The notes under the pieces were generated by a model that did no database searches, was not told where the DNA came from, and saw nothing but the letters and a program-made list of their open reading frames with translations. Shown here one piece after another: positions 8,441 through 37,814 of a stretch of 64,000 bases of DNA. The position numbers and the translations under genes are program-made. This stretch comes from Euzebyales bacterium. Lineage in GTDB: Bacteria > Actinomycetota > Nitriliruptoria > Euzebyales > JAHELV01. The stretch spans positions 20,628-84,627 of the forward strand of contig DASUUK010000068.1 of assembly GCA_036374135.1 (NCBI GenBank). The letters are read 5' to 3'. The stretch's first letter is position 1; each line of letters starts with the position of its first letter.

Positions 8441-9759
8441 GCCAACCATCCGCCGACCGACCTGACGACGACGTGCACGACGCACCGCCCGACCAGCATG
8501 GCGGTGCCCAAGACGAGGTCAGCCACCACGACCACGGTCCGCCCGCGTCCGAGCTGGTTCCGCTGTCGGAGTACCTGCAGGGCATCATCGACGCGGTCTC
8601 TCCGCTGCCGCCGATCCAGCTGTCGCTGCTGGATGCGTCAGGCTGCGCGCTGGCCGCCGACGTCGTCGCGCACACCGACGTCCCACCGTTCGACAACTCG
8701 GCGATGGACGGCTACGCCGTGGTCGCCGACGCCGCGGACGGGTGGCTGCCCGTCGTCGGCGAGGTCGCGGCCGGCGACGACGAGCCGATGCCCGCCGAGC
8801 CCGGCACCGCCGTCGGGGTGATGACCGGTGCCGTGATGCCACCGGGTGCGGACGCGGTCGTGCCGGTCGAGCAGGTCGAGCGCGATGGCGACCGGGTCCG
8901 GGTGACGTCGCCGCCCGCGCACGGTGCCCACATCCGTCGCGCCGGCGAGTCGGTGCGCGCCGGCGAGACGATCCTGGTCACCGGCACCGTGCTCGACGCC
9001 GCGAGCGTCGGCATGCTCGCCGCGTTGGGTCACTCGTACGTCTCGGTCTACCCGCAGCCGCGCGTGGTCGTGGTGTCGACCGGCGAGGAGCTCGCCGACC
9101 CCGGGACCGAGCGGTCAGCCGGGGCGATCTACGATGCGAACAGCTACGTGCTGACCGTGCTGGCGCGTGACACCGGCGCGCAGACGCTGCGGCGCATGAT
9201 CGCCTCGGACGACAAGGCCGACCTGCGTGAGACGATCGAGGAACTGCTGCCCCACGCGGACGTGCTCGTGACGACCGGCGGCGTCAGCGCCGGCCGCTAC
9301 GACATGGTCAAGGTGGTCCTCGCCGAGCTCGGTGACGTGCAGTTCCGCAAGGTCGGCATGCGGCCGGGCATGCCGCAGGCGTTCGGCTTCATCGAGGCGG
9401 ACCCCGACCGCTACATCCCGTGCTTCGGTCTGCCGGGCAACCCCGTCAGCGCGTACGTCAGCTTCGAGGTCTTCGTCCGCCCGACCATCCGTCGGCTGCA
9501 GGGCCGCCGCGACCTCAGCCGGCCGCGTATCAGCGCGGCGCTCGAGGCCCCGTTGGACTCGGTCGCAGACAAGGTGGAGTTCACCCGCGTCACGCTGCGA
9601 CGGCGGGACGGGGAGTGGCAGGCGCGGCCGACCGGCGCGCAGGGCAGCGGCATCCTGCGCTCGCTGGTCGATGCGGACGGCCTCGCCGAGGTGCCGGCCG
9701 ACCGGGACCGCCTGGAGATCGGCGAGCGGGTCGTCGTGCACCTGCTGCGCAGCGTGTGA
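8437..9759 (+). CDS. moeA: Molybdopterin molybdotransferase MoeA / gephyrin-like Glp
   Basis: PPFDNSAMDGYAV, MTGAVMP.GADAVVP.E, STGEEL, TTGGVSAG, GLPGNPVSA, QGSG motifs; GTGA overlap with the galU stop. Confidence 0.95.
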   Translation: MSQPSADRPDDDVHDAPPDQHGGAQDEVSHHDHGPPASELVPLSEYLQGIIDAVSPLPPIQLSLLDASGCALAADVVAHTDVPPFDNSAMDGYAVVADAADGWLPVVGEVAAGDDEPMPAEPGTAVGVMTGAVMPPGADAVVPVEQVERDGDRVRVTSPPAHGAHIRRAGESVRAGETILVTGTVLDAASVGMLAALGHSYVSVYPQPRVVVVSTGEELADPGTERSAGAIYDANSYVLTVLARDTGAQTLRRMIASDDKADLRETIEELLPHADVLVTTGGVSAGRYDMVKVVLAELGDVQFRKVGMRPGMPQAFGFIEADPDRYIPCFGLPGNPVSAYVSFEVFVRPTIRRLQGRRDLSRPRISAALEAPLDSVADKVEFTRVTLRRRDGEWQARPTGAQGSGILRSLVDADGLAEVPADRDRLEIGERVVVHLLRSV

Positions 9760-9763
9760 CGCT

Positions 9764-10258
9764 GTGACCGATGACCGGCTGACCCACCTCGACGCGCGCG
9801 GTCACGCACGCATGGTGGATGTCGGCGACAAGGCACCGTCCGTCCGTGAGGCCACCGCGAGTGCCGAGGTCGTGTTGCGCGCGGCCACCGCGGAGCAGCT
9901 CGCGGCGGGCAGTCTGCCCAAGGGTGACGCGCTGGCCGTGGCCCGGGTGGCCGGCATCATGGCCGCGAAGCGCACCCCGGAGCTGATCCCGCTGTGCCAC
10001 ACCGTCGCGCTGGCGGGCGTCGAGGTCGATGTCGTCGTCCACCACGATCCGCCCCGAGCCGAGATCCGCACCACGGTCCGCGCCGCCGACCGCACCGGTG
10101 TCGAGATGGAGGCACTGGTCGCGGCCAGCACCGCCGCACTCGCGCTGTACGACATGATCAAGGCGATCGACCGGGGCGCCGTGGTGCGCCACGTGCGGCT
10201 CGAGCACAAGTCCGGCGGCGTGCGTGGCGAGTACCGGCGGGGTGGCGACGATGGCTGA
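9764..10258 (+). CDS. moaC: Cyclic pyranopterin monophosphate synthase MoaC
   Basis: LTHLD..G.ARMVDVG.K, GDALAVARVAGIMAAKRT.ELIPLCH, TGVEMEAL, LYDMIKA motifs. Confidence 0.95.
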   Translation: MTDDRLTHLDARGHARMVDVGDKAPSVREATASAEVVLRAATAEQLAAGSLPKGDALAVARVAGIMAAKRTPELIPLCHTVALAGVEVDVVVHHDPPRAEIRTTVRAADRTGVEMEALVAASTAALALYDMIKAIDRGAVVRHVRLEHKSGGVRGEYRRGGDDG

Positions 10259-10739
10259 GAAACCGCGACGGGCGACGGTGCTCACCGTCTCGACGCGCGC
10301 CGCCGCCGGTGTCTACGACGACGAGGCAGGTCCGCTGCTCGCCGAGCAGCTGCGCTCGGCGGGGTTCACCGTCAATCCCGTCGTCGTCGTGCCGGACGGC
10401 CGCGACGTCGTCGCCGACGCGCTGCGGACCGCACTGCCGGACGCCGACGTGATCGTGACGACCGGCGGCACGGGCCTGCACCCGCGGGACCGCACGCCCG
10501 AGGCGACCAGCGACGTCATCGAGCGCACCGTCGACGGCATCGCGGAGGCGATGCGTGCGGCCGCGCTGCGCATCACGCCGATGGGCATGTTGTCCCGCGC
10601 CATCGCGGGCGTCGCGCAGGACACGTTGATCATCAACCTGCCTGGATCGCCCAAGGGGGCGACCGAGAACCTGTCGGTCGTCCTGCGTGTGCTCGGTCAC
10701 GCCGTCGATCAGCTGCGCGGCGGCGATCACCCCCGCTGA
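10251..10739 (+). CDS. mog: MogA/MoaB family molybdopterin adenylyltransferase
   Basis: LTVS, VVPD, TTGGTG..PRD.TPEAT, SRAIAG, INLPGSPKG motifs. Confidence 0.9.
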   Translation: MAEKPRRATVLTVSTRAAAGVYDDEAGPLLAEQLRSAGFTVNPVVVVPDGRDVVADALRTALPDADVIVTTGGTGLHPRDRTPEATSDVIERTVDGIAEAMRAAALRITPMGMLSRAIAGVAQDTLIINLPGSPKGATENLSVVLRVLGHAVDQLRGGDHPR

Positions 10740-10864
10740 AGCGCCGGCGCCGCGGGGCCGGATCACGGCGTGTGTGCCCGGCATGAGCGAGGATGAGGCC
10801 CAGTCGTCGGCGGTGCGCCGGACATCCGCCGGGAAAAATCACTTCGTTGGTAGTCTGCGCCGCG

Positions 10865-11425
10865 ATGAGCTTCGTCGTCGTCGGACTGCTGGTCGCCCTG
10901 TGGACCTGGGTGCTGCTGCCCGGCCTGCTGCGCAACCGACGTGACGCCTCGACGCAGGAGCTGGGTACCGACGTCGATGGCGACGGTGACGCCCTGCCCC
11001 GGTCCGCTTCCGACCGGCGCGACGGCGACGGAGCCGGCCGCCGGATCCTCGTCCTGAGCGATCCCGAGAAGATCGTCGCCGCACAGCCGCGCAGCCGCGC
11101 CGAGCTGCGCCGACGTGCCGTGCTCGCCCGCGGCGGCTTCGCGCTGGTCGCCGCGGTCGTGGCGGGGCTTGCGCTCGGCGGCCCGTGGTGGGTGCCCGCC
11201 GCTGTCATCGGCGTGCCGTACACCCTGTACGTCGGTTTGGCCGTGCGGCTCGAACGACGCCTCGCCGAGCAGCGCGAGACCCTGCACGACATCGCGGAGG
11301 AACGCGCGCGACGACAAGCGCCGCAACCCACCGTTGCCGATCCCGACGCGATCGAGCTGGTCGTGGGCGACGCGTCGGGCATCATCGTCACGGGCTGGCA
11401 GCGGGGCCGCTCCACCGATTCGTGA
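10865..11425 (+). CDS. GlpR/SepX-like membrane protein (putative gephyrin-like receptor)
   Basis: N-terminal TM ending W..VLLP.LLR, a disordered linker, an RRR motif, two further TM helices and a coiled-coil-like tail; located between the moeA cluster and tRNA-Ala, as for actinobacterial glpR/sepX. Confidence 0.6.
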   Translation: MSFVVVGLLVALWTWVLLPGLLRNRRDASTQELGTDVDGDGDALPRSASDRRDGDGAGRRILVLSDPEKIVAAQPRSRAELRRRAVLARGGFALVAAVVAGLALGGPWWVPAAVIGVPYTLYVGLAVRLERRLAEQRETLHDIAEERARRQAPQPTVADPDAIELVVGDASGIIVTGWQRGRSTDS

Positions 11426-11452
11426 CCCCACGGGCATCACCGAGGAGGACGC

Positions 11453-12106
11453 GTGGCACAGCTCGACGACATCGGCGAGCGCGCACGGACTGAGCTCGAG
11501 ACCCTGCACCGGGCGCGTGAGGACGCGTACGCGGCGTCGCGCCGCGTCATCCGTTCTGCGGCAAACGCGATCCGCGCGGTGCATCGCTCCGAGGGGGCGA
11601 CGGCGCGCGCACTGCTCGACGAGGCGACCGACTCGCTCGACGTCGTACGGGGCGCCTCACGTGAGCGGCCACAGCTGACCGGCGCCGGCTTCGTCCTCGA
11701 CGCCCAGAAGGAGTACGCCGAAGCCCGGCTGGTCTATGGACTGCTCGTCGCCGCGTCCGACGACCTGCCCGGCCCCGACGAGCTCGACATCGACACGGCG
11801 GCGTGGCTCAACGGGCTGGCCGAGACCGTTGGCGAGCTGCGTCGACGGATGCTCGACCTCTTGCGCGCGGGCGACCACGACGGGGCCAGCGCCGCGCTCG
11901 CCGCGATGGAGGACATCATCGCGGTGCTGGTCACGATCGACTTCCCGGACGGCGTGACCGGCGGTCTGCGGCGCTCGACCGATGTCGCGCGGTCGATCAC
12001 CGAACGCAGCCGCGGCGACCTGACGACGGCGCTGCAGCTCGATCGAGTACATCGTGCACTCGCCGCCGCTGACCTCGACGGACGGGTCGGGAGCGCGGAC
12101 GGCTGA
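11453..12106 (+). CDS. Translin/TRAX-family protein
   Basis: All-helical pattern; REDAY..SR.VIR..A.AI..VH, QKEYAEA, GLAETVGELRR and LRR..DVAR...ER motifs resemble archaeal translin/TRAX; strong RBS GAGGAGG before the GTG. Confidence 0.8.
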   Translation: MAQLDDIGERARTELETLHRAREDAYAASRRVIRSAANAIRAVHRSEGATARALLDEATDSLDVVRGASRERPQLTGAGFVLDAQKEYAEARLVYGLLVAASDDLPGPDELDIDTAAWLNGLAETVGELRRRMLDLLRAGDHDGASAALAAMEDIIAVLVTIDFPDGVTGGLRRSTDVARSITERSRGDLTTALQLDRVHRALAAADLDGRVGSADG

Positions 12107-13488: not shown

Positions 13489-13597
13489 CACGCGTGCTCC
13501 TGTCGAGGTGCCGCCGTGAGGATGGCGTCGGGCGTCGACACGCGCATCGGTGGATCCACGCATTCCGACACCTGTCCCCGTGTGGCACGCTGACGAC

Positions 13598-15235
13598 ATG
13601 ACGGGTCAGGCAGCCGCACTCGTTGACCGCGGGCGACGCGCGCTCGACGCGTGCAACTGGACGGCGGCGAGCGACGCGTTCGAGCAGGCGCGGGCATCGG
13701 AGGAGTCCGCCGAGGTCCTCGACGGCCTGGGGGAGGCGCGGTACTGGCAGGGCGCGTACGCCGAGTCGGCGGCGCTCCGCGAACGCGCGTACGCCCTCTA
13801 CCGCCGCCGCGGCGACCGGCCGGACGCCGCGCGTGTCGCGGTCCACCTGGCGCAGCTGCACGGCCTGGTGTACGGGAACGCGGCGGCGGTCAGCGGATGG
13901 ATCGGTCACGCGCAGCGGATGCTGGCCGACTGTGACGTGTGCGTCGTGCACGGGCTGGTCGAGCTGTTCCTCGGCGCCGTCGCGTCCGACCCCGACGAGC
14001 GTGAGCGGCGCGCCCGCGCGGCCGTCGGGATCGGACGCAGGTTCGACGCGCCGGGCCTCGAACACGATGCGCTCGGCTACGTCGGCAAGGCGCACATCGA
14101 ACGGGGTGCCGTTGCCGACGGCATGCGACTGATCGATGAGGCCGTCGCCGCCGTCGCCAGCGGCCTGGTCAGTGACGCGTGGGCGGCCGGCAGCATCTGG
14201 TGCAGCCTGTTCCATGCCTGCGAGATGGCGATCGATGTCGGACGGGCCGAGCAGTGGCTCGGCGCGGTGGATCACTACGTCGAACGCACGGACGAGCTGC
14301 CGATCTCCGCGATCTGCCGCATGCACTACGGGGGTCTGCTGACGTCCGCCGGACGTTGGGTCGACGCGGAGCGCGAGCTGCAGATCGCGCTGTCGATCTA
14401 CGACGACACCTACCGCGGCACCCGGTTCGAGCCGCTGCTGCGTCTGGCAGAGCTGCGGGCGCGCCAGGGCCGCATCGAGGAGGCCGCGCGGCTGATCGGA
14501 GGGTACGAGGACCATCCGCTCGCCGTGCTGCCCAGGGCGCGCGTGCTGCTGGCCCGCGACGCGCCGGACCACGCGCGGGCGGTGCTGGATCGCCACCTGC
14601 CACGCGGCACGTGCGACCTCCCGGCAGCGCCCGGTGTGGCGCTGGCCGTCGACGTCGCGCTCGCGTGCGGCGCCGTCGACCAGGCGCGCGAGCGCACGGA
14701 CCAGCTCGAGGCGCTCGCCGACAGCTGCGGTGTGCCCTCGGTGCGAGGGTTCGCCGCCCGCGCCCGGGCGGGGATCGCGGCCGCCACGGCCGGCCAGGCG
14801 GCGGCGGCCCACCTCGAGGAGGCGCTCGTCGCGTTCGCCGATGGTGGCATGGCCCACGACATCGCCGGCACACGACTGCAGCTCGCGACGCTGCTCGCCG
14901 ACGAGCGACCACAGGTCGCGACCGGTGAGGCCCGCTCAGCGCTCGAGGGCTTCCAGGCCATCGGAGCCGTGCGTGGCGCCGACGCCGCCGCACAGCTGCT
15001 GCGCCGTCTCGGTGAAACCGGCCCCGCTCGCCCACCTGTCGACGGCGTCCTGACCGCCCGACAGCACGAGGTGCTCGATCTGGTCGCCGAAGGCCTGTCG
15101 AACGCCGACATCGCCGAACGGCTGTTCATCAGCCGCCGCACCGTCGAGCACCACGTCAGCAGCATCCTGTCGGCGCTCCAGGTGAGGACCCGGGCGGAGG
15201 CCGCGGCACGCGCGCTGCGGGGCATCCGGACGTAA
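13598..15235 (+). CDS. LuxR-family regulator with TPR-like N-terminal region
   Basis: C-terminal LTARQHEVLDLVAEGLSNADIAERLFISRRTVEHHVSSIL HTH; helical repeat N-terminus; no Walker A. Start is estimated. Confidence 0.88.
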   Translation: MTGQAAALVDRGRRALDACNWTAASDAFEQARASEESAEVLDGLGEARYWQGAYAESAALRERAYALYRRRGDRPDAARVAVHLAQLHGLVYGNAAAVSGWIGHAQRMLADCDVCVVHGLVELFLGAVASDPDERERRARAAVGIGRRFDAPGLEHDALGYVGKAHIERGAVADGMRLIDEAVAAVASGLVSDAWAAGSIWCSLFHACEMAIDVGRAEQWLGAVDHYVERTDELPISAICRMHYGGLLTSAGRWVDAERELQIALSIYDDTYRGTRFEPLLRLAELRARQGRIEEAARLIGGYEDHPLAVLPRARVLLARDAPDHARAVLDRHLPRGTCDLPAAPGVALAVDVALACGAVDQARERTDQLEALADSCGVPSVRGFAARARAGIAAATAGQAAAAHLEEALVAFADGGMAHDIAGTRLQLATLLADERPQVATGEARSALEGFQAIGAVRGADAAAQLLRRLGETGPARPPVDGVLTARQHEVLDLVAEGLSNADIAERLFISRRTVEHHVSSILSALQVRTRAEAAARALRGIRT

Positions 15236-15401
15236 CGGTGTCCGGATGCCCGGACGCGCTGTGACGTGCGTTGACGCTACCGTGTCCACGGCAGGCGCGG
15301 ATGGCCACGACCCGGAGGCCGGACGCAGGGCGGCAGTGACGCGGGGTGTGGGGAACTCCACGTTGCGGCCGGGCCGTGTCACGCCGACGGGAGGACGCGG
15401 T

Positions 15402-16325
15402 ATGCAGGCAGGGACGACCATCGGACCGTACGAGCTGCGTGGCCTGTTGTGGACCGACGCGGTGTCGCAGATCTGGGACGCCCGCACCGACGGCGGGCCG
15501 GCGGCGGTGTACCGCGGCGTGCGCCAGGAGGCAGGCGTCCCGCATCGGGTGCGCATCTACGACGCGGCGGATCGGCGTGAGCGTGAGGCGCTCGTGCGGA
15601 CCATCGAACGCGTCGCGCCGCTGCGGCACCCGGCGCTGGCTCCGATCCACGACGCGGGCACGATCGACGAGCGCGTATACGTGGTGACCGGTGACGTCGG
15701 CGCGCTGACCCTGGGTGAGGCGGTCGGACGGTGGGGGCCGGCCGACCCCACTCGCGCGATCGAACTGCTCGAACCGCTCGCGATCGCGCTCGACGCGCTG
15801 CACGACGTCGCACTCGCGCACGGCGCCATCGGGCCACGGACGGTGCTGGTCGATGTGGACGGCGACCGGCTCGTGCTCACGGACTTCGGCCTCGACGACC
15901 GGTTGGGCCGTGGCCGCGCCAGCGGTGCAACGGCTGAGGAGGTGCCCTACGTCGCTCCCGAGCAGATCCGGGGACGTGGCACGCGCCCGGAGTCGGATCA
16001 GTACGCGCTGGCGTGCGCGCTGGCGCACCTGACGGCCGGACGACCGCCGTTCGCGGCGGGTACGTCGAACGGCCGCGGAAGTTCGGCGCCGGTGCCCGAC
16101 GGTGGGGGCGCGGTCGCGTTGAGAGCGGCCGTGCGCACCGGCATGGCGCCGAACGCGGCTGACCGGTACCAGTCGTGCGCGGCCTTGCTGGCCGCCGCCG
16201 GCGCGCCTGCGCAGGCGGCCGTGGCCCCGCCCGAGCCGCGGCAGCACGATGCGGGCGTGATGTCGGGTGGTCGCCTGGGCCGTTGGCTACGTCGTGGGGC
16301 AGGTCCCGAGCGGCGACTGTGGTGA
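15402..16325 (+). CDS. Ser/Thr protein kinase-fold protein, probable pseudokinase
   Basis: GPYEL...L, L.HP.LAPIHD.G, LTDFGL, YVAPEQ.RG, SDQYALAC motifs are present, but the catalytic loop reads HGAIGPRTVL; GGAGG RBS. Confidence 0.85.
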   Translation: MQAGTTIGPYELRGLLWTDAVSQIWDARTDGGPAAVYRGVRQEAGVPHRVRIYDAADRREREALVRTIERVAPLRHPALAPIHDAGTIDERVYVVTGDVGALTLGEAVGRWGPADPTRAIELLEPLAIALDALHDVALAHGAIGPRTVLVDVDGDRLVLTDFGLDDRLGRGRASGATAEEVPYVAPEQIRGRGTRPESDQYALACALAHLTAGRPPFAAGTSNGRGSSAPVPDGGGAVALRAAVRTGMAPNAADRYQSCAALLAAAGAPAQAAVAPPEPRQHDAGVMSGGRLGRWLRRGAGPERRLW

Positions 16326-17088: not shown

Positions 17089-19020
17089 TCACACGATGCC
17101 GCCGACGACCGCGCCGAGCACGAGTACCACCGCGTAGGCGCCCAGCCCGCCCAGCACGATCGCCGTACGGAACCAGACGGGCAGGCTGGCGCGCGCCAGC
17201 AGATAGGCGACCACCCCGACGAACGGCACGAGCAGCACGACCGCCATCCACGCCAGCGTGGCGCCGCGGCCCAGATCGTCGCGGCGCGCCAGGTCCCACA
17301 GCGCCAGCGCGATCCAGGCGGCGACCAGTGCGAACGGCAGCAGGTAGGCGTACAGCCCGAACAGGACCGACCAGAACCCGGTCGCGAGCAGCGGGAGTCC
17401 GGACACGAGCACCTCCGGTGCGTGGTGCGGGGCGACCTCGCCGTCGGGAGCGGCGGGCACGTCGATGGCGGCGAGATCCAGGCGTAGCTGGTCGTAGACG
17501 TCGACCGCCGGGCGGACCGGTGCGTCGACACCGCCGACCAGCTGTGGTTGCGGTGGGGGAGGGGGTTGGTCGCGCGGCGGGTTGTCGGGTGCGAGCCCGC
17601 GCGCCGCCTCGGCGACGTAGCCCAGGTTGTTCGCGGCTGTCGACAGATCCCACCGCCACGGCAGGCGCGGGCCGTCGCAGCCCTGCACGGACTGGAGGGC
17701 GACCGGGACCGTGCGGCCCGCGTCGTTGTCCGAGAAGCAGTTGGCGGCGCCCGCTGGTCCCGCGAGCGCGAGATCGGCGCGGCCCGAACCGCCCACGACG
17801 TTGTCGCGGACGTGGTTGTCCGACGCGAGCCACAGGTGGTCGGACAGGTTCGGCGTGACGAGCACGCCGTGCATCGCGTTGCCGATGATGCGGTTGCGCT
17901 CGATGCGCACGTCATTGGTGCCGGCGGCGATGATGCCACCGCCGTACGACGGCCACTCGATCTCCAACGTCGGCACGTCGTCGACGCCGTTGTCGTAGAC
18001 GAGGTTGCCCACGATGTCGACGCGCTCCGCCGGCGGCAGCAGTTCCGTGTCGAGCGTGTTCGGCACGATGCCGGCGATGTTGTGGCGCCACGTCGACGAC
18101 ACGATGTGCAGATCGCCGCTGGCGTTCGTGCCCGAGTAGCCCAGTCCGTTGCGCTCCGCCACCACGTCGCGGATCACCGCGCGACAGGGGTCACACTGCC
18201 CGATGTAGAAGCCGGCGTCGGCCGACCCCGATGCCCACGAGCTCTCGAACAGCCCGTCGACCGAATCGAACGCGTAGATGCCGTAGACCTCGTTGTTGAC
18301 CGACGTCACGTTGGTGGCGCGATAGCCCGTCACGCCGGTCCAGAACAGGCCGTTGAGCCGGGCGTTGCGCACCGTGAGGTTCTCGACGGCGACGCCGTCG
18401 GCGGTGACGCTGACCGCGTTGGGACGAACGAACCCGCCGTCGATGACGACCGCGTTCCGGTCGGTGCCGCGCAGCACCAGGGACGGCGTGTCGATCTTGA
18501 CCTCTTCGCGGTACACGCCGGGCCCCACGAGGACCAGGTCCCCCGGATCGGCGGCGTCGACGGCGCCCTGGATCGTGCGGTGGTCCTCGGGCACCCGGCG
18601 GGTCACGCCCGATGCCGCCGCCACGGCGCGCTGCGGCGCGGTGTCGGGATCGGCGGCGTAGGGTACGTCACCGACCACCAACGTGGCGTACATGCCGTCC
18701 CCGTCAGCCGTGCCGTGGAGCGTGCAGTAGTAGCGGTAGACGCCGGGACGGTCGACGGTGATCGTGGTCGCCGCGCCGGTGGGCAGCACGTCGGCGCCGA
18801 AGGTGTCGGCGGTGGACCACGACCCGTCGACCGCGACCGCGTTGTGCACGGTCTTGCCCTGGTTGTGGAACACGATCTCGGCGTCCACCGGCACCCGGGT
18901 CACGTCGCGGGTGAACACGTTGTCGAGCATGCCGATGCGGACCTCACCAGGATCGTCCCGGCTTCCGCACCCGGCGAGCACCAGGCCGGCCAGCAGCGTC
19001 AGCGCGACGCGCCACCACAC
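17089..19020 (-). CDS. Lipoprotein with cupredoxin domain, right-handed beta-helix domain and C-terminal PLDc_N-like membrane hairpin
   Basis: Lipobox VLAGC; HNAV ... YYCTLHG....GM type-1 Cu ligands; TIQGAVDAADPGDLVLVGPGVYRE and repeated N/G beta-helix coils; C-terminal W..VVLLVPFVG...YL. Start is estimated (GGAAGG RBS). Confidence 0.8.
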   Translation of the reverse strand: MWWRVALTLLAGLVLAGCGSRDDPGEVRIGMLDNVFTRDVTRVPVDAEIVFHNQGKTVHNAVAVDGSWSTADTFGADVLPTGAATTITVDRPGVYRYYCTLHGTADGDGMYATLVVGDVPYAADPDTAPQRAVAAASGVTRRVPEDHRTIQGAVDAADPGDLVLVGPGVYREEVKIDTPSLVLRGTDRNAVVIDGGFVRPNAVSVTADGVAVENLTVRNARLNGLFWTGVTGYRATNVTSVNNEVYGIYAFDSVDGLFESSWASGSADAGFYIGQCDPCRAVIRDVVAERNGLGYSGTNASGDLHIVSSTWRHNIAGIVPNTLDTELLPPAERVDIVGNLVYDNGVDDVPTLEIEWPSYGGGIIAAGTNDVRIERNRIIGNAMHGVLVTPNLSDHLWLASDNHVRDNVVGGSGRADLALAGPAGAANCFSDNDAGRTVPVALQSVQGCDGPRLPWRWDLSTAANNLGYVAEAARGLAPDNPPRDQPPPPPQPQLVGGVDAPVRPAVDVYDQLRLDLAAIDVPAAPDGEVAPHHAPEVLVSGLPLLATGFWSVLFGLYAYLLPFALVAAWIALALWDLARRDDLGRGATLAWMAVVLLVPFVGVVAYLLARASLPVWFRTAIVLGGLGAYAVVLVLGAVVGGIV

Positions 19021-19493
19021 CGTCGGGCACCTTCCGCCGTGTCCTCGGACCTCATCATCGCACCACCGGCGACGCGCACCGAGGGACGCAGCGCTGTCGA
19101 GCGGGTGGGCGCGCACGCGGTCGTGCAGACCGCTGGCGGTCGCACGTTGGCGCTCGCCCCGGGAGCCGGCCGGGTGCAGGTCCTGGGAAGGTCGTCCGGG
19201 TTGCCGCCCGCGCGCCCGGATCGTGTCTGGCTGCTCGCCGACGGTGGCGGCGGCCCGAAGCGGATGGAACAGGTCGCCGAGCCCGGTCGTTGCGGCCGTG
19301 CTGGCCCCCCGACGAACGGCGCGTGCGCTGCTGGCCGGTGACGAGGTCGCCACCGGGACGCTGCTGATGGTCGACGACGCGGCGGTCGGGGACGCGTCGG
19401 CGTTCGTGGCAGTGGCCATCGCGCAGTGAGTGACCGCGCGTGGCCACGCTCCCCGGTCGGGGGTGACCGCTACGACACCGTCGCCGTGTGGCG

Positions 19494-20318
19494 TCACCGC
19501 CAGAGCGATGGCACCGAGCCACCGGCTGCCGAGCTGCGTTGACGACTCGGCCGTGCGGCAGGCGCGATGGCAGCGGCGACCGCGCCCACGCTGTCGACCG
19601 GTGCGTCAGCACGCGACGCGGCGAGCTCGCGCCATATCGCCGGCACCACCGCGCGCAGGTAGTGGTGCAGCTGGACGAACGACCGTCCATGCTCCCGGAA
19701 CGCGTAGGAGATCGGGACCTCCGCGTACCGGAGGCCCTGGCGTAGCAGGTTGAGGGTCAGCACCTGGGCGTAGTTGTAGTCGTGGACGATCTCGGCGGTG
19801 CGCGCGGCGTCGGCGGACAGCGCGCGGTACCCGCTCTGACCGTCGGTGATGGCGGTGTCCGCCAGGCGACGCAGCGCCCAGGTGAGCACGTGGTTGCCGG
19901 CGCGGCGGTGCGGATGCATGCGCCTGATCGTCCCGGCGAAGCGCGATCCGACGACGTAGTCGGCGTCGCCACGCAGGATGGGCAGGACGAGGTTGCCGAG
20001 CTCCTCCGGCGCGTACTCACCGTCGGCGTCGCAGAAGGCGACGACGCGCACACCACAGCGCACCGCGTGACGCAGCCCGGTGCGCACCGCGGCGCCGAGC
20101 CCGCGCCGGGCGCCATGACCGATCACCGTCGCACCCGCGAGGCGCGCGAGCTCGGCGGTGGCGTCCGTCGAGCCGTCATCGACGACCACGCAGCTCACGG
20201 CGATGCCCGCTACGGTGTCCGGCGTCCGGTCGATCACAGCGGCGACGGTCGCCGCCTCGTTGTGTGCGGGCAGCACGAGCGCGATGCCGCCGGCCTGCGG
20301 AGCGGTTGGTGATCCCAT
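19494..20318 (-). CDS. GT2 glycosyltransferase (polyprenyl-phosphate sugar synthase-like)
   Basis: LPAHNEA, VVDDGSTDAT, RGLGAA, CDADGEY, VVGSRF, TDGQSGYRA motifs. Confidence 0.92.
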   Translation of the reverse strand: MGSPTAPQAGGIALVLPAHNEAATVAAVIDRTPDTVAGIAVSCVVVDDGSTDATAELARLAGATVIGHGARRGLGAAVRTGLRHAVRCGVRVVAFCDADGEYAPEELGNLVLPILRGDADYVVGSRFAGTIRRMHPHRRAGNHVLTWALRRLADTAITDGQSGYRALSADAARTAEIVHDYNYAQVLTLNLLRQGLRYAEVPISYAFREHGRSFVQLHHYLRAVVPAIWRELAASRADAPVDSVGAVAAAIAPAARPSRQRSSAAGGSVPSLWR

Positions 20319-20319
20319 A

Positions 20320-20338
20320 TGAGCTTAGGCTAACCTAA
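20320..20338. promoter_or_regulatory. IdeR/DtxR iron box
   Basis: TGAGCTTAGGCTAACCTAA matches the consensus TTAGGTTAGGCTAACCTAA at 17/19; it lies between the divergent GT2 gene and the Fe-binding protein gene. Confidence 0.88.
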
Positions 20339-20402
20339 GTCATCGCTCGATGTCGCACCCACGTGCGACGGTTCCATCGGTCGGGGTCGGAGGGCTGACA
20401 GC

Positions 20403-21470
20403 GTGATGACAGATGCAGGTCCCACTCGTGCCCGCGCCGCCACGCGAGGCGTGGCTGGCGCACATCGCCGTCGGCTGCTCGCCGTCGGGCTATGGCTCGT
20501 CGGCGCGGTCGTCCTCGCCGCGTGCACGGGCGCGGCCGGCTCGGAACGGCTGACGATCTACTCCGGACGTGGGGAGAGCCTGGTCACGCCCGTGCTCGAG
20601 GCGTTCAACGAGGAGACCGGCATCGCCATCGACGTGCGCTACGGCGACTCGGCCGACCTCGCCCTGCTGATCGACGAGGAGGGCGACGCCTCTCCGGCCG
20701 ACATCTTCTACTCGCAGACGCCGGGTGCCACCGGCTTCCTGGCTGCCAACGACCGCCTCGCCCAGCTGCCCGACGACGTGCTGACGCAGGTCGATGAGCA
20801 GTTCCGCGGAGATGACGACCGCTGGCTGGGCGTGACGGGTCGGCAACGCGTACTCGTCTACAACGCCGACGAGTTGGATGAGTCCGACCTGCCATCGTCC
20901 GTGCTGGACGTCAACGATCCCCCATACGCCGGGCGCGTCGCAGTGGCGCCGTCGAACGGATCGTTCCAGGACTTCGTCACGGCGTTGCGTCAGACCGAGG
21001 GCGACGACGTCGCGCGTGCGTGGCTGGAGGGACTCGCGGCCAACGACGCCCCGACCTATGCCAACAACAACGCCATCGTCGAGGCGGTCGGTCGCGGCGA
21101 GGTGCCCATGGGGCTGGTCAACCACTACTACAACTACCGGTTCCTCGAGGAGGACCCCGATCTGCCCAGCCGCAACCACGTCTTCGGCGGACGCGACATC
21201 GGCGCGCTGCTGATCGACTCGACCGTCGCGGTGACCGCGGCCTCCGACCACCCGGACGCACAGCGCCTGGTCGAGTTCCTGCTGAGCGAGCCGGCGCAGC
21301 GTTTCTTCGCCGACGAGACGAAGGAGTACCCGCTGGCCTCGGGGGTCGAACCCGCCGATGACGTGCCGCCGCTCGACCTGTCGACCGTGCCCGCCGTCGA
21401 CGTCAACGACCTCGGTGACGGCCTGACCGCGACACTCGAGCTCATCCGCGACAGCGGACTCGATGGGTGA
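20403..21470 (+). CDS. Fe3+ ABC substrate-binding lipoprotein (FutA/AfuA/FbpA-like)
   Basis: Lipobox VLAAC; IYSGR, E.ETGI...VRYG.S, ADIFY, GLVNHYY (tandem Tyr iron ligands), EYPL motifs. Confidence 0.9.
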   Translation: MMTDAGPTRARAATRGVAGAHRRRLLAVGLWLVGAVVLAACTGAAGSERLTIYSGRGESLVTPVLEAFNEETGIAIDVRYGDSADLALLIDEEGDASPADIFYSQTPGATGFLAANDRLAQLPDDVLTQVDEQFRGDDDRWLGVTGRQRVLVYNADELDESDLPSSVLDVNDPPYAGRVAVAPSNGSFQDFVTALRQTEGDDVARAWLEGLAANDAPTYANNNAIVEAVGRGEVPMGLVNHYYNYRFLEEDPDLPSRNHVFGGRDIGALLIDSTVAVTAASDHPDAQRLVEFLLSEPAQRFFADETKEYPLASGVEPADDVPPLDLSTVPAVDVNDLGDGLTATLELIRDSGLDG

Positions 21471-22879
21471 TCGGATCCGCAGCGCGGGCACGTGCGGTAC
21501 CGCGCCGCCGGCGTGCACGTCCGCCGCCGCTCGTCGTGGCGATGGCCGTCGCCGCGTTGGTCGCGCTGGCCGGCGCGCTGGCGGGCGTGCCGGCGCGTGC
21601 CACGTATGGCGCGCGCACGACGGCCGATGAGCCCCAGTACCTCCTGACCGCCGTCAGCCTCGCCCGCGACGGAGACCTCGACATCAGCGATGAGCTGGCG
21701 GGTCAGGTGTGGCGCGCGTTCCACGCCGCCGACCTGCCACAGCAGACCCGCCCGCTGCCCGGCGGGGTCCGCATCAGTCCGCACGATCCGTTGCTGCCCG
21801 TGCTGCTGGCGCCCGGCGTGGCCCTCGGCGGATGGGTGGGCGCCAAGGTCACGCTCGCGGTGCTGGCGGCGCTGCTGGCGGCGCTGCTCGTCGCCGTGGC
21901 CGTGACGCGCCTCGCGGTGCGACCGGCCGTCGCCGCCACGGTGACCGCGGTGCTCGCGACGTCGGTCCCTCTGGCTCCCTATGGCTCCCAGGTGTATCCC
22001 GAGCTCCCGGCGGCGCTCGTCGTCGGCATGGCGCTGGCGGCGCTGCTCGGCCCGTTGCGGCGCCGGCGTGCGGTCGCCGTGGTGGTGCTCGCGTGCTGCG
22101 CGCTGCCGTGGCTCGGCGTCAAGTACGCGCCCGTCGCGGCCGTGCTGGCCGCCGCGTTGCTGGCGCGACTGGCGCAACGGGGCCACCTGCGCCGGGCGGA
22201 GGTGGTCGTCGGCGCGCTCGCGGTCGCCGGCGTCGTCTACCTGCTGATCCACCATCGTGTCTGGACCGGCTGGACCGTCTACGCGAGCGCCGACCACTTC
22301 GTCGGCACCGGCGAGCTCGGTGTCGTCGGCACCGCACCGGACCACTGGGCGCGCACGACCCGGCTGCTCGGCCTCCTGGTCGAGCGCGCGTTCGGCATCG
22401 CGGCCTGGCAGCCCGCGTGGCTCCTGCTGGTGCCCGCCACCGTCGCCGCGCTGCGCGCACGCGTGTCGGGCTCCCGCCTGCTGGTCGCCGTCCTCGCGGT
22501 CGGCTGGCTCACGGCGTCCTACGTGGCGCTGACGATGGCCGGCTGGTGGGTGCCCGGACGTCAGATCGTCGTCGTCCTGCCCGCGGCGGTGCTGTTGATC
22601 GCCTGGTGGGCCGACCGGCATCGCCCGGCGCTGCTGGCGACCGCGGCGCTGGGCGCGGTCGGCGTGGCGTCATGGCTGCTGCTGGCGTGGGAGGCGTCGT
22701 CGGGGCGGCTGACGCTGGTCGTCGACTTCTTCGCCACGGCGAACCCGTGGTACCGCCTGTGGAGCGGCGCGCTGCCGGACTACCTCGCTCCGACCGCGGC
22801 GACGTGGTGGCGTCACGGTGTGTGGCTGGTCGTCGTCGCCTGCCTTGCCGTGGTCGGAGCGCGCACCGCACGCCGCTGA
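21467..22879 (+). CDS. Multi-pass membrane protein, GT-C (ArnT/PMT-like) glycosyltransferase candidate
   Basis: About 10-12 hydrophobic segments; ADEPQY acidic motif in the first extracytoplasmic loop; YPELP and LPWLGVKY; GTGA overlap with the SBP stop. Confidence 0.6.
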   Translation: MIGSAARARAVPRRRRARPPPLVVAMAVAALVALAGALAGVPARATYGARTTADEPQYLLTAVSLARDGDLDISDELAGQVWRAFHAADLPQQTRPLPGGVRISPHDPLLPVLLAPGVALGGWVGAKVTLAVLAALLAALLVAVAVTRLAVRPAVAATVTAVLATSVPLAPYGSQVYPELPAALVVGMALAALLGPLRRRRAVAVVVLACCALPWLGVKYAPVAAVLAAALLARLAQRGHLRRAEVVVGALAVAGVVYLLIHHRVWTGWTVYASADHFVGTGELGVVGTAPDHWARTTRLLGLLVERAFGIAAWQPAWLLLVPATVAALRARVSGSRLLVAVLAVGWLTASYVALTMAGWWVPGRQIVVVLPAAVLLIAWWADRHRPALLATAALGAVGVASWLLLAWEASSGRLTLVVDFFATANPWYRLWSGALPDYLAPTAATWWRHGVWLVVVACLAVVGARTARR

Positions 22880-22883
22880 GGCA

Positions 22884-23666
22884 TCACCGGGGCGACGCCG
22901 CCCCGCGGTCGTCGGCCCGATGGCGCTGCTGGTACCGCGCGGCGACGGTCTGCAACGCGACCTGCGGCTCGAGAGCGTCAGGCACCGGCCCCAGGCGAGG
23001 TTCGAGCGCCGCGAGCAGCTCGCGGCCCACGTCGTCGCGTCGCGCAGGGGACAGGGCGTCCGCCCGCAGCAGGTACGCGCGGACCGCCGCGTAGTCGCGC
23101 GGGCCCAGCGCGCTCGTGTCGATGTCGTCGGCGAGCACCCCGGCGGCGGCCGGCACGGTGAAGTCGTGCGGTCGTGAGGTGCCGGATCCGACGCGTTCGC
23201 GGATCACGACGGTGCCGGCGACCATGTCACCGAGCCGCTGGTTGCGACGCGACAGCATGCTGGCCAGCACGGCGCCGAGGCCGAAGGTCGCGGCGAAGTC
23301 GACGAGACCCAGGGCCGCACGGATCGCAGCGTGGCGGAACCGCACGGGCGCGCCTTCGACGGTGACGACCCGTAGGCCCATCAGCGCCTTGCCCGGGGTG
23401 CGTCCGCCGCCGCGCCACACCGTCTCGAACGCGATCGGATAGCCGAAGTACGCGAGGAACACGACGAGGGTGATCGCCGTCACGATCACCCACTCCGGGG
23501 CGCCCGGCCTGGCCACGGACGCGCCGACGGCGGCGATGAGCACGAAGTACGCGATGGTCTGCAGCGCCCAGTCGATCATCACCGCGACTCCGCGCGAACC
23601 GACCGTCGCCTCCGGAACGTCCAGCGGGACGGCCTCGGGGGAGACCAGCACATGGTCGCGGCTCAT
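22884..23666 (-). CDS. RDD family membrane protein
   Basis: SPEAV.L, SRGVA.MID, GRTPGK..MGLRVV, RLGDMVAGT motifs. Confidence 0.88.
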   Translation of the reverse strand: MSRDHVLVSPEAVPLDVPEATVGSRGVAVMIDWALQTIAYFVLIAAVGASVARPGAPEWVIVTAITLVVFLAYFGYPIAFETVWRGGGRTPGKALMGLRVVTVEGAPVRFRHAAIRAALGLVDFAATFGLGAVLASMLSRRNQRLGDMVAGTVVIRERVGSGTSRPHDFTVPAAAGVLADDIDTSALGPRDYAAVRAYLLRADALSPARRDDVGRELLAALEPRLGPVPDALEPQVALQTVAARYQQRHRADDRGAASPR

Positions 23667-23715
23667 GTGATGTCGCCACCTCCCGGACCGCTCGGACCGT
23701 GCCACGATAGGCGCT

Positions 23716-24723
23716 GTGGACATCGACGGCTTCATCGCGGGCAACCGTGCCGGTTGGGAACGGCTCGACGAGCTCGTCGGCACGGTCGAACGCGGGCGGC
23801 ACCTGTCGGCCGACGACGTCGACGAGCTGGTGTCCGGCTACGAACGGACGTCGACGCACCTGTCGATCGCGCGGACCCGCTACGACGACGCGGCGCTGAC
23901 GGCCGAACTGACACGGCGGGTCGGGCGGGCACGCGCGGCGATCTACGGCAGTCGCACGGGCACCTGGCGGGACGCCGCGCTGTTCGTGACGCACGGCTTC
24001 CCCGGAGCCGTGTGGCACGCGCGCCGGCAGATCGCGGTGTCGTTCGCGCTGTTCATGGTCCCTGCGGTCGCCATGGCCGTCTGGCTGGCATCGTCGCCCC
24101 GCGCGCTCGACGTCGCGGCGCCGCCGGTGCTGCGCGAGGCCTACGTCGAACGCGACTTCGCCGACTACTACACGGCGCAACCCTCGGCGCAGTTCGCCAC
24201 GCAGGTGACGACCAACAACATCCGCGTCAGCGTGCTCGCGTTCGCCGGCGGGGTGCTGGCATGCGTGCCGACCGCCTGGGTCCTGGTGCTCAACGGCGCC
24301 AACGGTGGCGGCGCGGCCGGCCTGTTCGCCGCGGCGGGTGAGTTGCCGCGCTTCTGGGGACTCATCCTGCCCCACGGCCTGCTCGAGCTGACGGCCGTCT
24401 TCATCGCGGGCGGTGCCGGGTTGAAGCTGGGCTGGACGCTCATAGACCCCGGCGACCGCCCGCGGGGCGAGGCGCTGGCTGCAGAAGGGCGGCGATCGGT
24501 GGCGATCGTCATCGGCCTGGTCGCGGCGTTCGTGCTTGCAGGACTCGTCGAGGGCTTCGTGACCGGGTCACCGTTGCCGACCTGGGCCCGGGTCGGCATC
24601 GGTGTGGCCGTCGAGGTCGTCTTCGTGGGCTACGTGCTGCGGTTGGGGCCACGCGCCGCGGCCGTGCCCGTCGCCGACCCCGCCGCGGCCGCCGGCGCAC
24701 GGGCCCGCGGCGAGCGCCGCTGA
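23716..24723 (+). CDS. Stage II sporulation protein M (DUF95) family membrane protein
   Basis: MDID.FI....W.RL, NNIRV..LAFAGG, LILPHGLLELTA, LAGLVEGFVT motifs; divergent from the RDD gene. Confidence 0.88.
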   Translation: MDIDGFIAGNRAGWERLDELVGTVERGRHLSADDVDELVSGYERTSTHLSIARTRYDDAALTAELTRRVGRARAAIYGSRTGTWRDAALFVTHGFPGAVWHARRQIAVSFALFMVPAVAMAVWLASSPRALDVAAPPVLREAYVERDFADYYTAQPSAQFATQVTTNNIRVSVLAFAGGVLACVPTAWVLVLNGANGGGAAGLFAAAGELPRFWGLILPHGLLELTAVFIAGGAGLKLGWTLIDPGDRPRGEALAAEGRRSVAIVIGLVAAFVLAGLVEGFVTGSPLPTWARVGIGVAVEVVFVGYVLRLGPRAAAVPVADPAAAAGARARGERR

Positions 24724-37758: not shown

Positions 37759-37814
37759 GGATGGTGCAGTCTAGCTGGGGCGCCCCTCAGCGGGCGCCGC
37801 CGGAGACGGCCGAC

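Follow-up and report, generated by a model that had tools for sequence, protein, structure and literature searches.

In the Ppm1/Pmt (GT39) O-mannosylation system of Corynebacterium, Mycobacterium and Streptomyces, a GT2 enzyme at the cytoplasmic face makes a polyprenyl-phosphate sugar and a GT-C enzyme transfers the sugar outside. Pmt is a general housekeeping enzyme. The three-component systems GtrA/B/C, ArnC/ArnEF/ArnT, PpgS/Rv3632/Rv3779 and CsbB/GtcA/YfhO are built from a GT2 synthase, a flippase and a GT-C, and their acceptors are O-antigen, lipid A, arabinogalactan or teichoic acids. To our knowledge, none of these three-component systems is under IdeR/DtxR control or lies inside an FbpABC operon. 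Here we describe a module of the same general kind at positions 17089-22879 of the window (the whole 64,000-nt stretch of Euzebyales DNA that was analysed), in which a GT2 gene and a gene for a GT-C-fold membrane protein are joined by one predicted IdeR/DtxR operator to the gene of a ferric-iron binding lipoprotein, FbpA. The window has a G+C content of 72% and belongs to contig C68 of a 3.98-Mb soil metagenome-assembled genome (MAG), whose closest relatives are MAGs of Nitriliruptorales, Egibacteraceae and Euzebyaceae. The public sequencing runs holding the sequence are DNA runs of soil metagenomes only, with no RNA runs among them.

The module also resembles described systems outside glycosylation. 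Like auracyanins and the neisserial proteins Laz and AniA, one of its lipoproteins combines a type-1 cupredoxin, a lipid anchor and a low-complexity linker, and the linkers of those proteins are glycosylated. Fea1 (PF07692) is an algal periplasmic protein induced by low iron, and the extracytoplasmic partner set of the module is similar to those of Chlamydomonas FOX1/FTR1/FEA1 and of EfeUOB. A cupredoxin and an imelysin (M75) domain form the two halves of EfeO (PMC3143127, PMC9174327). In the mycobacterial and corynebacterial IdeR-DtxR regulons a 19-bp palindromic operator overlaps iron-uptake promoters, and the module has a predicted operator of this kind at a putative promoter.

On balance we think it probable that the locus encodes an IdeR-repressed polyprenyl-phosphate-sugar glycosylation pathway that is part of Fe3+ uptake and that probably O-glycosylates the tethers of lipoproteins. 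The module would then decorate dedicated iron and copper lipoproteins, and the window would hold the core, under IdeR control, of an island for iron acquisition that is conserved in actinobacteria.

The predicted operator and the genes it joins

The region 17089-22879 contains four genes and one operator. Its features are as follows.

20320-20338, no strand: predicted IdeR/DtxR operator TGAGCTTAGGCTAACCTAA, 17 of 19 positions as in the consensus TTAGGTTAGGCTAACCTAA
20327-20332, minus strand: candidate -10 hexamer TAGCCT of a leaderless GT2 transcript, inside the box and ending 8 nt before the ATG
19494-20318, minus strand: GT2, polyprenyl-phosphate sugar synthase-like, 274 aa, PF00535 (E 1.3e-21)
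20403-21470, plus strand: FbpA/HitA-type ferric-iron binding lipoprotein with a LAAC lipobox and a YY motif
21467-22879, plus strand: GT-C-fold membrane protein of an unclassified family, 470 aa, GTG start, D54-E55-P56-x-Y58
17089-19020, minus strand: lipoprotein made up of a type-1 cupredoxin domain, a beta-helix resembling NosD and a PLDc_N membrane tail, a neighbour of uncertain membership
19021-19493, minus strand: 473-nt stretch between the GT2 stop and the start of the cupredoxin/beta-helix gene, without a clear coding signal

A preliminary description of this DNA had placed a 17/19 IdeR box between the two arms, and the box is indeed found at 20320-20338. As described there, it is separated from the GT2 start codon (ATG, 20318-20316 on the minus strand) by the single nucleotide 20319, contains the hexamer TAGCCT (20332-20327 on the minus strand) 8 nt before that ATG, and lies 64 nt before the GTG of fbpA at 20403. 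The GT2 start has no Shine-Dalgarno sequence, and the fbpA start has a GGAGGG ribosome-binding site. A scan of the region for sigma-70 consensus promoters gave no match.

Boxes were searched by counting mismatches against the 19-bp IdeR consensus, with six Markov-1 simulated genomes as background. Apart from the box at 20320-20338, no site in the 3.98-Mb genome comes within four mismatches of the consensus; two further sites have five. In the simulated genomes no site had four mismatches or fewer, and those with exactly five averaged 0.83 per genome. The box is far beyond chance. Its 18-nt core AGCTTAGGCTAACCTAAG is invariant in two same-genus genomes (L008 and L006, making three species in total) in which the flanks have diverged, and in L008 the box has the same position relative to the GT2 ATG as in the window. 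The third IdeR-like site of the genome, TAAGGTCAGGCTGCCCTTA (C21:14120-14138), has 5 mismatches and is located 330 nt short of a contig end, with no visible target gene; an ABC-2 exporter pair and an ECF sigma factor are encoded upstream of it.

The genome has two DtxR-family genes. The first encodes an IdeR-type repressor (C74:80813-81610) with Fe_dep_repress and Fe_dep_repr_C domains and adjoins fbpC and fbpB, while the second is an MntR-like paralogue on C47. The ideR, fbpC and fbpB genes stand in line on one strand (C74:78027-81610; 8010-11611 in L090).

Relatives were collected by a scan of one genome per species, which gave 329 relatives, and the best 80 loci were taken into the analysis. 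These loci are drawn from Nitriliruptoria, Acidimicrobiia (including Microthrix and sponge symbionts) and Thermoleophilia; neighbour counts are based on the 47 of them with full flanks. The 1.07 Mb of related loci contain 24 IdeR-like boxes with four or fewer mismatches (0.1 expected) and 65 with five or fewer (1.9 expected). Across different genomes, boxes lie directly upstream of fbpA, epimerase, GT-C, Fea1 and small cupredoxin genes. Since boxes also stand before GT-C or epimerase genes that are detached from fbpA (L030, L046, L060, L029 and L082), the glycosylation genes have boxes even when separated from fbpA.

It could be argued that the box is a relic, or that it is bound by another DtxR-family regulator such as the MntR-like protein of C47, so that the iron linkage would be island-like co-inheritance only. 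The two DtxR-family genes and the empty consensus promoter scan would agree with this. However, the box is unique, conserved, palindromic and placed at the start of both genes, boxes recur before the detached GT-C and epimerase genes, and three-domain ideR genes are adjacent in 27 of the 47 loci, so that we consider this explanation highly improbable. The sequence instead suggests that IdeR would bind the divergon, which would respond to iron, and that the GT2 gene would be transcribed leaderless.

The product of the right-hand gene is a typical FbpA. It matches PDB entry 7w3w with an E value of 1.6e-74, its residues 50-353 align with about 28 FbpA/HitA/FutA-type entries, its Pfam matches are SBP_bac_6/1/8/11, and it contains an NHYYNY motif. 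It is also the sole FbpA of the genome, with a single tblastn match. An fbpC gene (ABC ATPase with a TOBE domain) and the genome's one FbpB-type double permease are found on C74, in line with ideR. The transporter is thus split across the genome, with the binding protein beside the glycosylation genes and the permease and ATPase beside the repressor. The coupling of fbpA to the downstream membrane protein gene, proposed earlier, is visible in the overlap of the fbpA stop with the GT-C start (GTGA, 21467-21470).

The GT-C family and its neighbourhood in relatives

The membrane protein encoded at 21467-22879 had no match to Pfam for any of 37 family members at E values up to 1, none to NCBIfam, and its profile had none to PDB sequences at E values up to 10. 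Placement in the PMT, PMT_2 or ArnT-type families (GT39, GT83) was likewise tried and was not borne out by sequence models. An AlphaFold2 model built from 37 sequences had a pLDDT of 87.5 and a pTM of 0.90. The preliminary description had suggested a structural search for a GT-C fold, and the top 11 Foldseek matches in the PDB were all GT-C enzymes, among them ALG12, AftB, ArnT, AglB, STT3, ALG9 and EmbC (probability 0.96-1.0, E 1.6e-3 to 4e-2, TM 0.37-0.51); the matches that followed were MFS transporters with a probability below 0.2. Eight acidic, proline or tyrosine residues (D54, E55, P56, Y58, D68, D72, D75 and E76) are invariant in 37 sequences, and R83 and H86 are also invariant in the outer loop after the first transmembrane helix (residues 21-38), where basic and His residues are conserved. 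Invariant acidic residues in the first outer loop occupy the hallmark position of GT-C enzymes and so support the fold assignment. According to the model, the membrane protein is a GT-C-fold protein belonging to no named GT-C family.

The N-terminal residues of the GT-C align with those of relatives from about residue 3 onward. Thousands of homologues exist, all labelled hypothetical; at 50% clustering the family has 3,549 representatives at E ≤ 1e-3 and 292 at E ≤ 1e-30. Distant members include single-chain fusions of GT-C, flippase-like domain and GT2 (1,021 aa) and of GT-C and GT2. Further natural fusions join an epimerase to GT-C, a flippase-like domain to GT-C, and GT-C to a cupredoxin.

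The GT2 carries DDGS and DAD motifs, as read in the translation. In NCBIfam it comes closest to the polyprenyl/dolichyl-phosphate sugar synthases AglJ, PpgS, dolichyl-P-hexose transferase and ArnC, in each case falling far short of the equivalog cut-off, and this points to the polyprenyl-phosphate sugar synthase type without a specific sugar. GT2 orthologues about 60-70% identical adjoin the GT-C gene in 39 of the 47 full loci. Together with the fusions, this adjacency suggests a genetic coupling of the GT-C to a polyprenyl-phosphate donor synthase. In many relatives the GT2 is fused to an N-terminal LPG_synthase_TM domain, an MprF-type flippase-like domain (L054, L063, L046 and L076), which the window GT2 does not have, and an SDR epimerase adjoins the module. 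Both the flippase-like fusion and the local epimerase have been lost in the genus of the window. The GT2 type, the flippase domain, the fusions and the epimerase indicate a chain of nucleotide-sugar tailoring, polyprenyl-phosphate-sugar synthesis, flipping and GT-C transfer. In marine Acidimicrobiia the module is joined by a gene for a FAD amine-oxidase/UGM-like flavoprotein and one for a second SDR epimerase (in L054 at 10339-11715, plus strand, and 9313-10275, minus strand). The same two genes occur in other loci, and the window has neither.

The typical gene order in relatives is ideR-fbpC> <(flippase-like::GT2) [epimerase]-fbpA-fbpB-GT-C-[Fea1]>, and the minimal form is GT2<-box->GT-C <ideR. 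An iron link, counted as FbpA/B/C, ideR, Fea1, imelysin or IdeR-like boxes, was present in 46 of the 47 fully flanked loci. The genes found beside the GT-C gene in these 47 loci are listed below.

GT2: 39 loci
FbpB: 31 loci
ideR: 27 loci, of the three-domain IdeR type
FbpA (strong match): 26 loci
FbpC: 25 loci

The preliminary description had proposed a search for conserved co-occurrence of the four genes and the box. The GT2, the GT-C, the iron genes and the boxes do recur together, but the cupredoxin/beta-helix gene was found in 0 of the 80 loci.

For a phyletic test we used 101 genomes sampled from the window's class, 47 of them GT-C-positive and 54 GT-C-negative. FbpA as such occurs in 84 of the 101, in GT-C-positive and GT-C-negative genomes alike. 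A high-similarity subtype is present in 30 of the 47 GT-C-positive genomes and in 1 of the 54 GT-C-negative ones. This first subtype, with about 55-80% identity and a conserved N-terminus, is nearly confined to GT-C-positive genomes; a second, with about 50% identity, occurs in genomes that lack the GT-C, even inside a single family. Two FbpA subtypes tracking the GT-C suggest that the whole island is gained or lost as one unit.

The association of the GT-C with the Fbp genes might also mean that the Fbp transporter is itself the target or the partner of the GT-C, which would either glycosylate FbpA or be a membrane partner replacing the permease gene that is missing from the operon. The translational coupling to fbpA in the window, the position of the GT-C gene after fbpB in most relatives and the high-similarity FbpA subtype that tracks the GT-C fit such a role. 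It nevertheless seems very improbable to us, for FbpA proteins have neither the lipoprotein tag nor the tether described below and are present in most GT-C-negative genomes, a normal FbpB/FbpC pair is encoded on C74, some loci have the GT2 and GT-C without Fbp genes, and the fold is that of a GT-C and not of an ABC permease.

The genome also encodes ordinary GT-C enzymes of the PMT family. A canonical one is found in the window at 36091-37770 on the minus strand (PF02366, 45 bits). At C88:30439-33524 a PMT-like gene is flanked on one side by a paralogue of the window GT2 (39% identity) and on the other by an SDR epimerase; this GT2/GT-C/epimerase trio is paralogous to the module, and no iron link was seen at it. 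With ordinary PMT-family GT-Cs present as well, the module studied here would be an extra, specialised system.

Tagged lipoproteins and the proposed acceptor

The C-terminal cupredoxin domain of one GT-C fusion led to a group of small cupredoxin lipoproteins of about 160-210 aa. In about 25 loci their genes are neighbours of the GT-C gene, and the distance between the two is often no more than 100 bp. H88, C147, H160 and M165 are invariant in 19 sequences. The folded domain is modelled with a pLDDT above 90, its best fold match is auracyanin, and azurin, small laccase and EfeO follow (E about 1e-5), the E. coli EfeO being among the matches. The match to Pfam Cupredoxin_1 is weak (E 1.7e-6 to 1e-3).

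After the lipobox Cys, these proteins share a tag, C-G-x-D-D-G-x-x-V-R-x-L/I-G, which is followed by a Ser/Gly/Ala tether of 20-80 residues. The same tag and tether are found in Fea1-like (PF07692) and imelysin (PF09375) lipoproteins of these loci, so that they are common to three unrelated iron-related families. Between 35 and 38 tagged, tethered open reading frames were found, in 35 of the 80 loci. A box with five or fewer mismatches stands within 260 nt upstream of 9 of 35 tagged genes, where about 0.55 were expected. A precedent is the Ppm1-dependent glycosylation that actinobacterial lipoproteins undergo in their N-terminal peptides (PMC3460810). A glycosylation of corynebacterial lipoproteins independent of Pmt was considered, but the same paper does not bear it out.

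In the phyletic test, a small cupredoxin lipoprotein (E 1e-10 or better) was present in 32 of the GT-C-positive genomes and in none of the 54 GT-C-negative ones. The Fisher p value of 3.6e-15 ignores shared ancestry, and presence is patchy within families. Fea1 was found in 7 of the GT-C-positive genomes and in 1 of the GT-C-negative ones; all seven of the former have both tag and (SG)n tether, and the lone Fea1 of the GT-C-negative genome has neither.

The genome of the window keeps only the cupredoxin type, Fea1 and imelysin having been searched for in it and found absent. Its small tagged cupredoxin is encoded at C113:9122-9763, with the N-terminus MRLRILAVALLLLGAC|SGADEGVRTIGSESGSGSGSASG and a tether of about 70 residues, and is 47% identical to its counterpart in L011. 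The gene starts 54 nt downstream of an IdeR-like site, GAAGGTTAACCTACCCTTA (C113:9050-9068). A six-frame regex scan of the genome found the tag behind a signal peptide in two proteins, this cupredoxin and the cupredoxin/beta-helix lipoprotein of the window. The proposal, made in the preliminary description, of an iron-starvation-induced surface glycosylation system tied to metal-binding lipoproteins is well supported by the comparative linkage and the fusions, but the recurrent copper partner is this different, small cupredoxin.

Several observations weigh against a glycosylation pathway for tagged lipoproteins under iron control. The Foldseek E values of the GT-C are modest (1.6e-3 to 4e-2, TM 0.4-0.5), and the co-occurrence statistics leave shared ancestry out of account. 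About 10 of the 47 GT-C-positive genomes, several of them incomplete, have neither the small cupredoxin nor Fea1, the two tagged families covered by the search of these genomes. The conserved tag holds no hydroxyl residue (no Ser or Thr) and can for this reason be a docking element at most. The cupredoxin/beta-helix lipoprotein of the window has no Ser/Gly tether, and the window has neither the epimerase nor the flippase-like domain of its relatives. The ideR-fbpC-fbpB operon on C74 has no box with six or fewer mismatches; IdeR and the importer's membrane half may be expressed constitutively, with iron regulation falling on the binding protein. Finally, the whole genome has only three sites within five mismatches, so that the IdeR motif used here may not be the same as the mycobacterial one.

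Some of these observations would suit a pathway with the same IdeR-controlled GT2 and GT-C steps and a glycolipid, a lipoglycan or a wall polymer as acceptor. Surface charge or metal binding would then be changed, as with Arn and lipid A or with PpgS, Rv3779 and arabinogalactan, and the tagged lipoproteins would merely be co-regulated. The GT-C is small (about 450 aa) and has no large soluble domain, its fold matches include ALG12, ALG9, ALG3 and PimE, which use lipid-linked acceptors, and minimal loci such as L082, L057 and L058 consist only of GT2, box, GT-C and ideR; the tag without Ser or Thr and the roughly ten genomes without small cupredoxin and Fea1 also agree with it. On the other side, the GT-C is co-inherited with Ser/Gly-tethered lipoproteins and often lies immediately beside them, a GT-C-cupredoxin fusion exists, and the Fea1 of a GT-C-negative genome is devoid of tag and tether. 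We therefore hold a non-protein acceptor to be unlikely, though it is the most serious of the alternatives, and keep to the glycosylation of lipoprotein tethers.

For such a pathway we propose the following mechanism. Under iron sufficiency, Fe-IdeR, from the gene on C74, would occupy the 19-bp operator; because the operator overlaps the probable leaderless GT2 promoter and lies 64 nt before fbpA, this would repress both arms. Under iron scarcity, FbpA, GT2 and GT-C would be made together, the GT-C by translational coupling to FbpA, and FbpA would serve the FbpBC importer encoded elsewhere, while the tethered cupredoxin of C113 would be co-expressed from its own box. At the cytoplasmic face the GT2 would load a sugar onto polyprenyl phosphate, the lipid-linked sugar would be flipped, and on the membrane's outer face the GT-C would transfer it to an acceptor. 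The likeliest acceptors would be the small type-1 cupredoxin, Fea1-like and imelysin-like lipoproteins, glycosylated on their Ser/Gly tethers, with the tag serving as a docking element at the membrane surface, where the active sites of GT-C enzymes lie. By analogy with EfeO and FOX1/FEA1, the decorated lipoproteins would handle iron within the wall, delivering Fe3+ first to FbpA and through it to FbpBC. The sugar, the glycosyltransferase activities and the acceptor, by Ser O-glycosylation of the tethers, are predictions made from sequence comparisons.

We put forward a more specific form of this proposal with somewhat less than even confidence, namely that the module has its own targeting signal. 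The GT-C would read the tag after the Cys and glycosylate the adjoining (Ser-Gly)n tether of the three lipoprotein families under iron starvation. If this is true, glycan-stiffened, protease-resistant stalks would hold iron-capturing and iron-oxidising domains in the wall and feed FbpABC, a bacterial counterpart of algal FOX1/FEA1 and the first case of glycosylation in an IdeR regulon.

In the broader form, if correct, the proposal would add a glycosylation step, post-translational or of the envelope, to bacterial iron acquisition and place a glycosyltransferase pair in the IdeR/DtxR regulon; neither was found described. It defines as GT-C a large membrane family that comprises 3,500 or more clusters at 50% identity and is covered by neither Pfam nor NCBIfam, and it supplies this family with a donor pathway open to testing and with candidates for its acceptors and its recognition tag. 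It also suggests how monoderm Actinomycetota without obvious siderophores, such as Acidimicrobiia, Nitriliruptoria, Microthrix and sponge symbionts, may capture iron, with tethered cupredoxin, Fea1 and imelysin feeding FbpABC. The tag and tether could serve as a portable glycosylation signal for glyco-engineering in Gram-positive hosts.

In the left arm the GT2 gene is followed by the cupredoxin/beta-helix lipoprotein gene, as first described, and the lipobox and domains of the latter were found. Its start is most likely not at 19497 but at a GTG at 19020, with a GGAAGG ribosome-binding site and the signal peptide MWWRVALTLLAGLVLAGC. The longer reading of 802 aa was rejected on the codon-position G+C, which gives a coding signal only from about 19000 downward, and on the ribosome-binding site and signal peptide at 19020. 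The 473-nt gap has no Rfam match and no consensus promoter or terminator, and no conservation of it is seen upstream of homologues. With 473 nt lacking a clear coding signal between them, co-transcription of the GT2 and cupredoxin/beta-helix genes is only putative.

As a conserved fourth member of the module the cupredoxin/beta-helix protein was rejected, being absent from the 80 related loci and from four same-genus loci. It belongs to a large family of proteins of about 645 aa, whose genes elsewhere stand beside ferritin, multicopper oxidase or gal genes. In L095 (5328-7929) a homologue of 79% identity and a ferritin gene are arranged divergently, and in L096 the homologue is followed by a multicopper oxidase. 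The ferritin and multicopper oxidase neighbours hint at a metal-redox role of the beta-helix family independent of the glycosylation module. A ferritin remnant was looked for upstream of the window gene, and none was found. The contigs of L097 and L098, two independent metagenome contigs with close homologues, both end 125-150 nt upstream of the start of the homologue and are uninformative on its neighbours; the region upstream of the beta-helix gene may be hard to assemble or variable. The N-terminus of the window protein, CGSRDDPGEVRIG, resembles the shared lipoprotein tag. The motif is found in 3 of 117 members of the beta-helix family, and the closest clade keeps CGGDDDxGxxRIG. That the window protein has been drawn into the system is a tentative suggestion for which the case is weak.

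Beyond the GT-C gene, the window has genes for an RDD-family membrane protein (22884-23783, minus strand) and a SpoIIM-family protein (23716-24723, plus strand). This pair also lies 3' of the GT-C gene in the same-genus loci L008 and L006, a case of conserved synteny. To the left of the cupredoxin/beta-helix gene are a TPR-LuxR regulator gene and a protein-kinase-like gene (13550-15235 and 15246-16325, both on the plus strand), and a TPR-LuxR gene is also found downstream of the homologue in L097.

Comparison with known systems

The N-terminal regions of lipoproteins are glycosylated by Ppm1/Pmt (PMC3460810), and the same is proposed for the present module. In contrast to Pmt, the GT-C of the module has no PMT or PMT_2 match, is about 450 aa long and has no soluble domain. 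The module is apparently dedicated, being linked to IdeR, located in Fe3+ uptake operons and co-inherited with tagged lipoproteins.

With the Arn system the relatives of the module share an SDR epimerase or dehydratase that is often attached. The aminotransferase ArnB, the formyltransferase ArnA and the deformylase ArnD were not seen among the domain-scanned neighbours, though no systematic search aimed at them was made. The flippase-like part of the module is an MprF-type LPG_synthase_TM domain, whereas GtrA or ArnEF has this place in the three-component systems.

Unlike in EfeUOB and FOX1, the domains of the module are separate lipoproteins on long Ser/Gly tethers, and they occur with an FbpABC importer and glycosylation genes and not with an EfeU/Ftr1 permease. 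The neisserial proteins Laz and AniA are modified by the general O-glycosylation system, with en-bloc O-oligosaccharyltransferases, and neither iron-repressor control nor a linkage to Fe3+ import is known for such systems.

The literature on iron-regulated GT-C or polyprenyl systems gave no system with the layout found here, in agreement with the preliminary description, and no IdeR/DtxR regulon member that is a GT-C or a polyprenyl-phosphate sugar synthase was found described in it. In C. diphtheriae sigB, dtxR and galE are contiguous, with a sugar-nucleotide epimerase gene beside the repressor gene (Oram et al. 2006, cited in PMC5784534), and this is the sole loose parallel to the module that we found.

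In summary, the module is real and conserved, and it seems to represent a variant of lipid-carrier glycosylation, linked to iron uptake, that has not been described so far. It would differ from the known systems in its new GT-C family, its MprF-type flippase-like domain, its predicted IdeR control and its integration with FbpABC and tagged lipoproteins.

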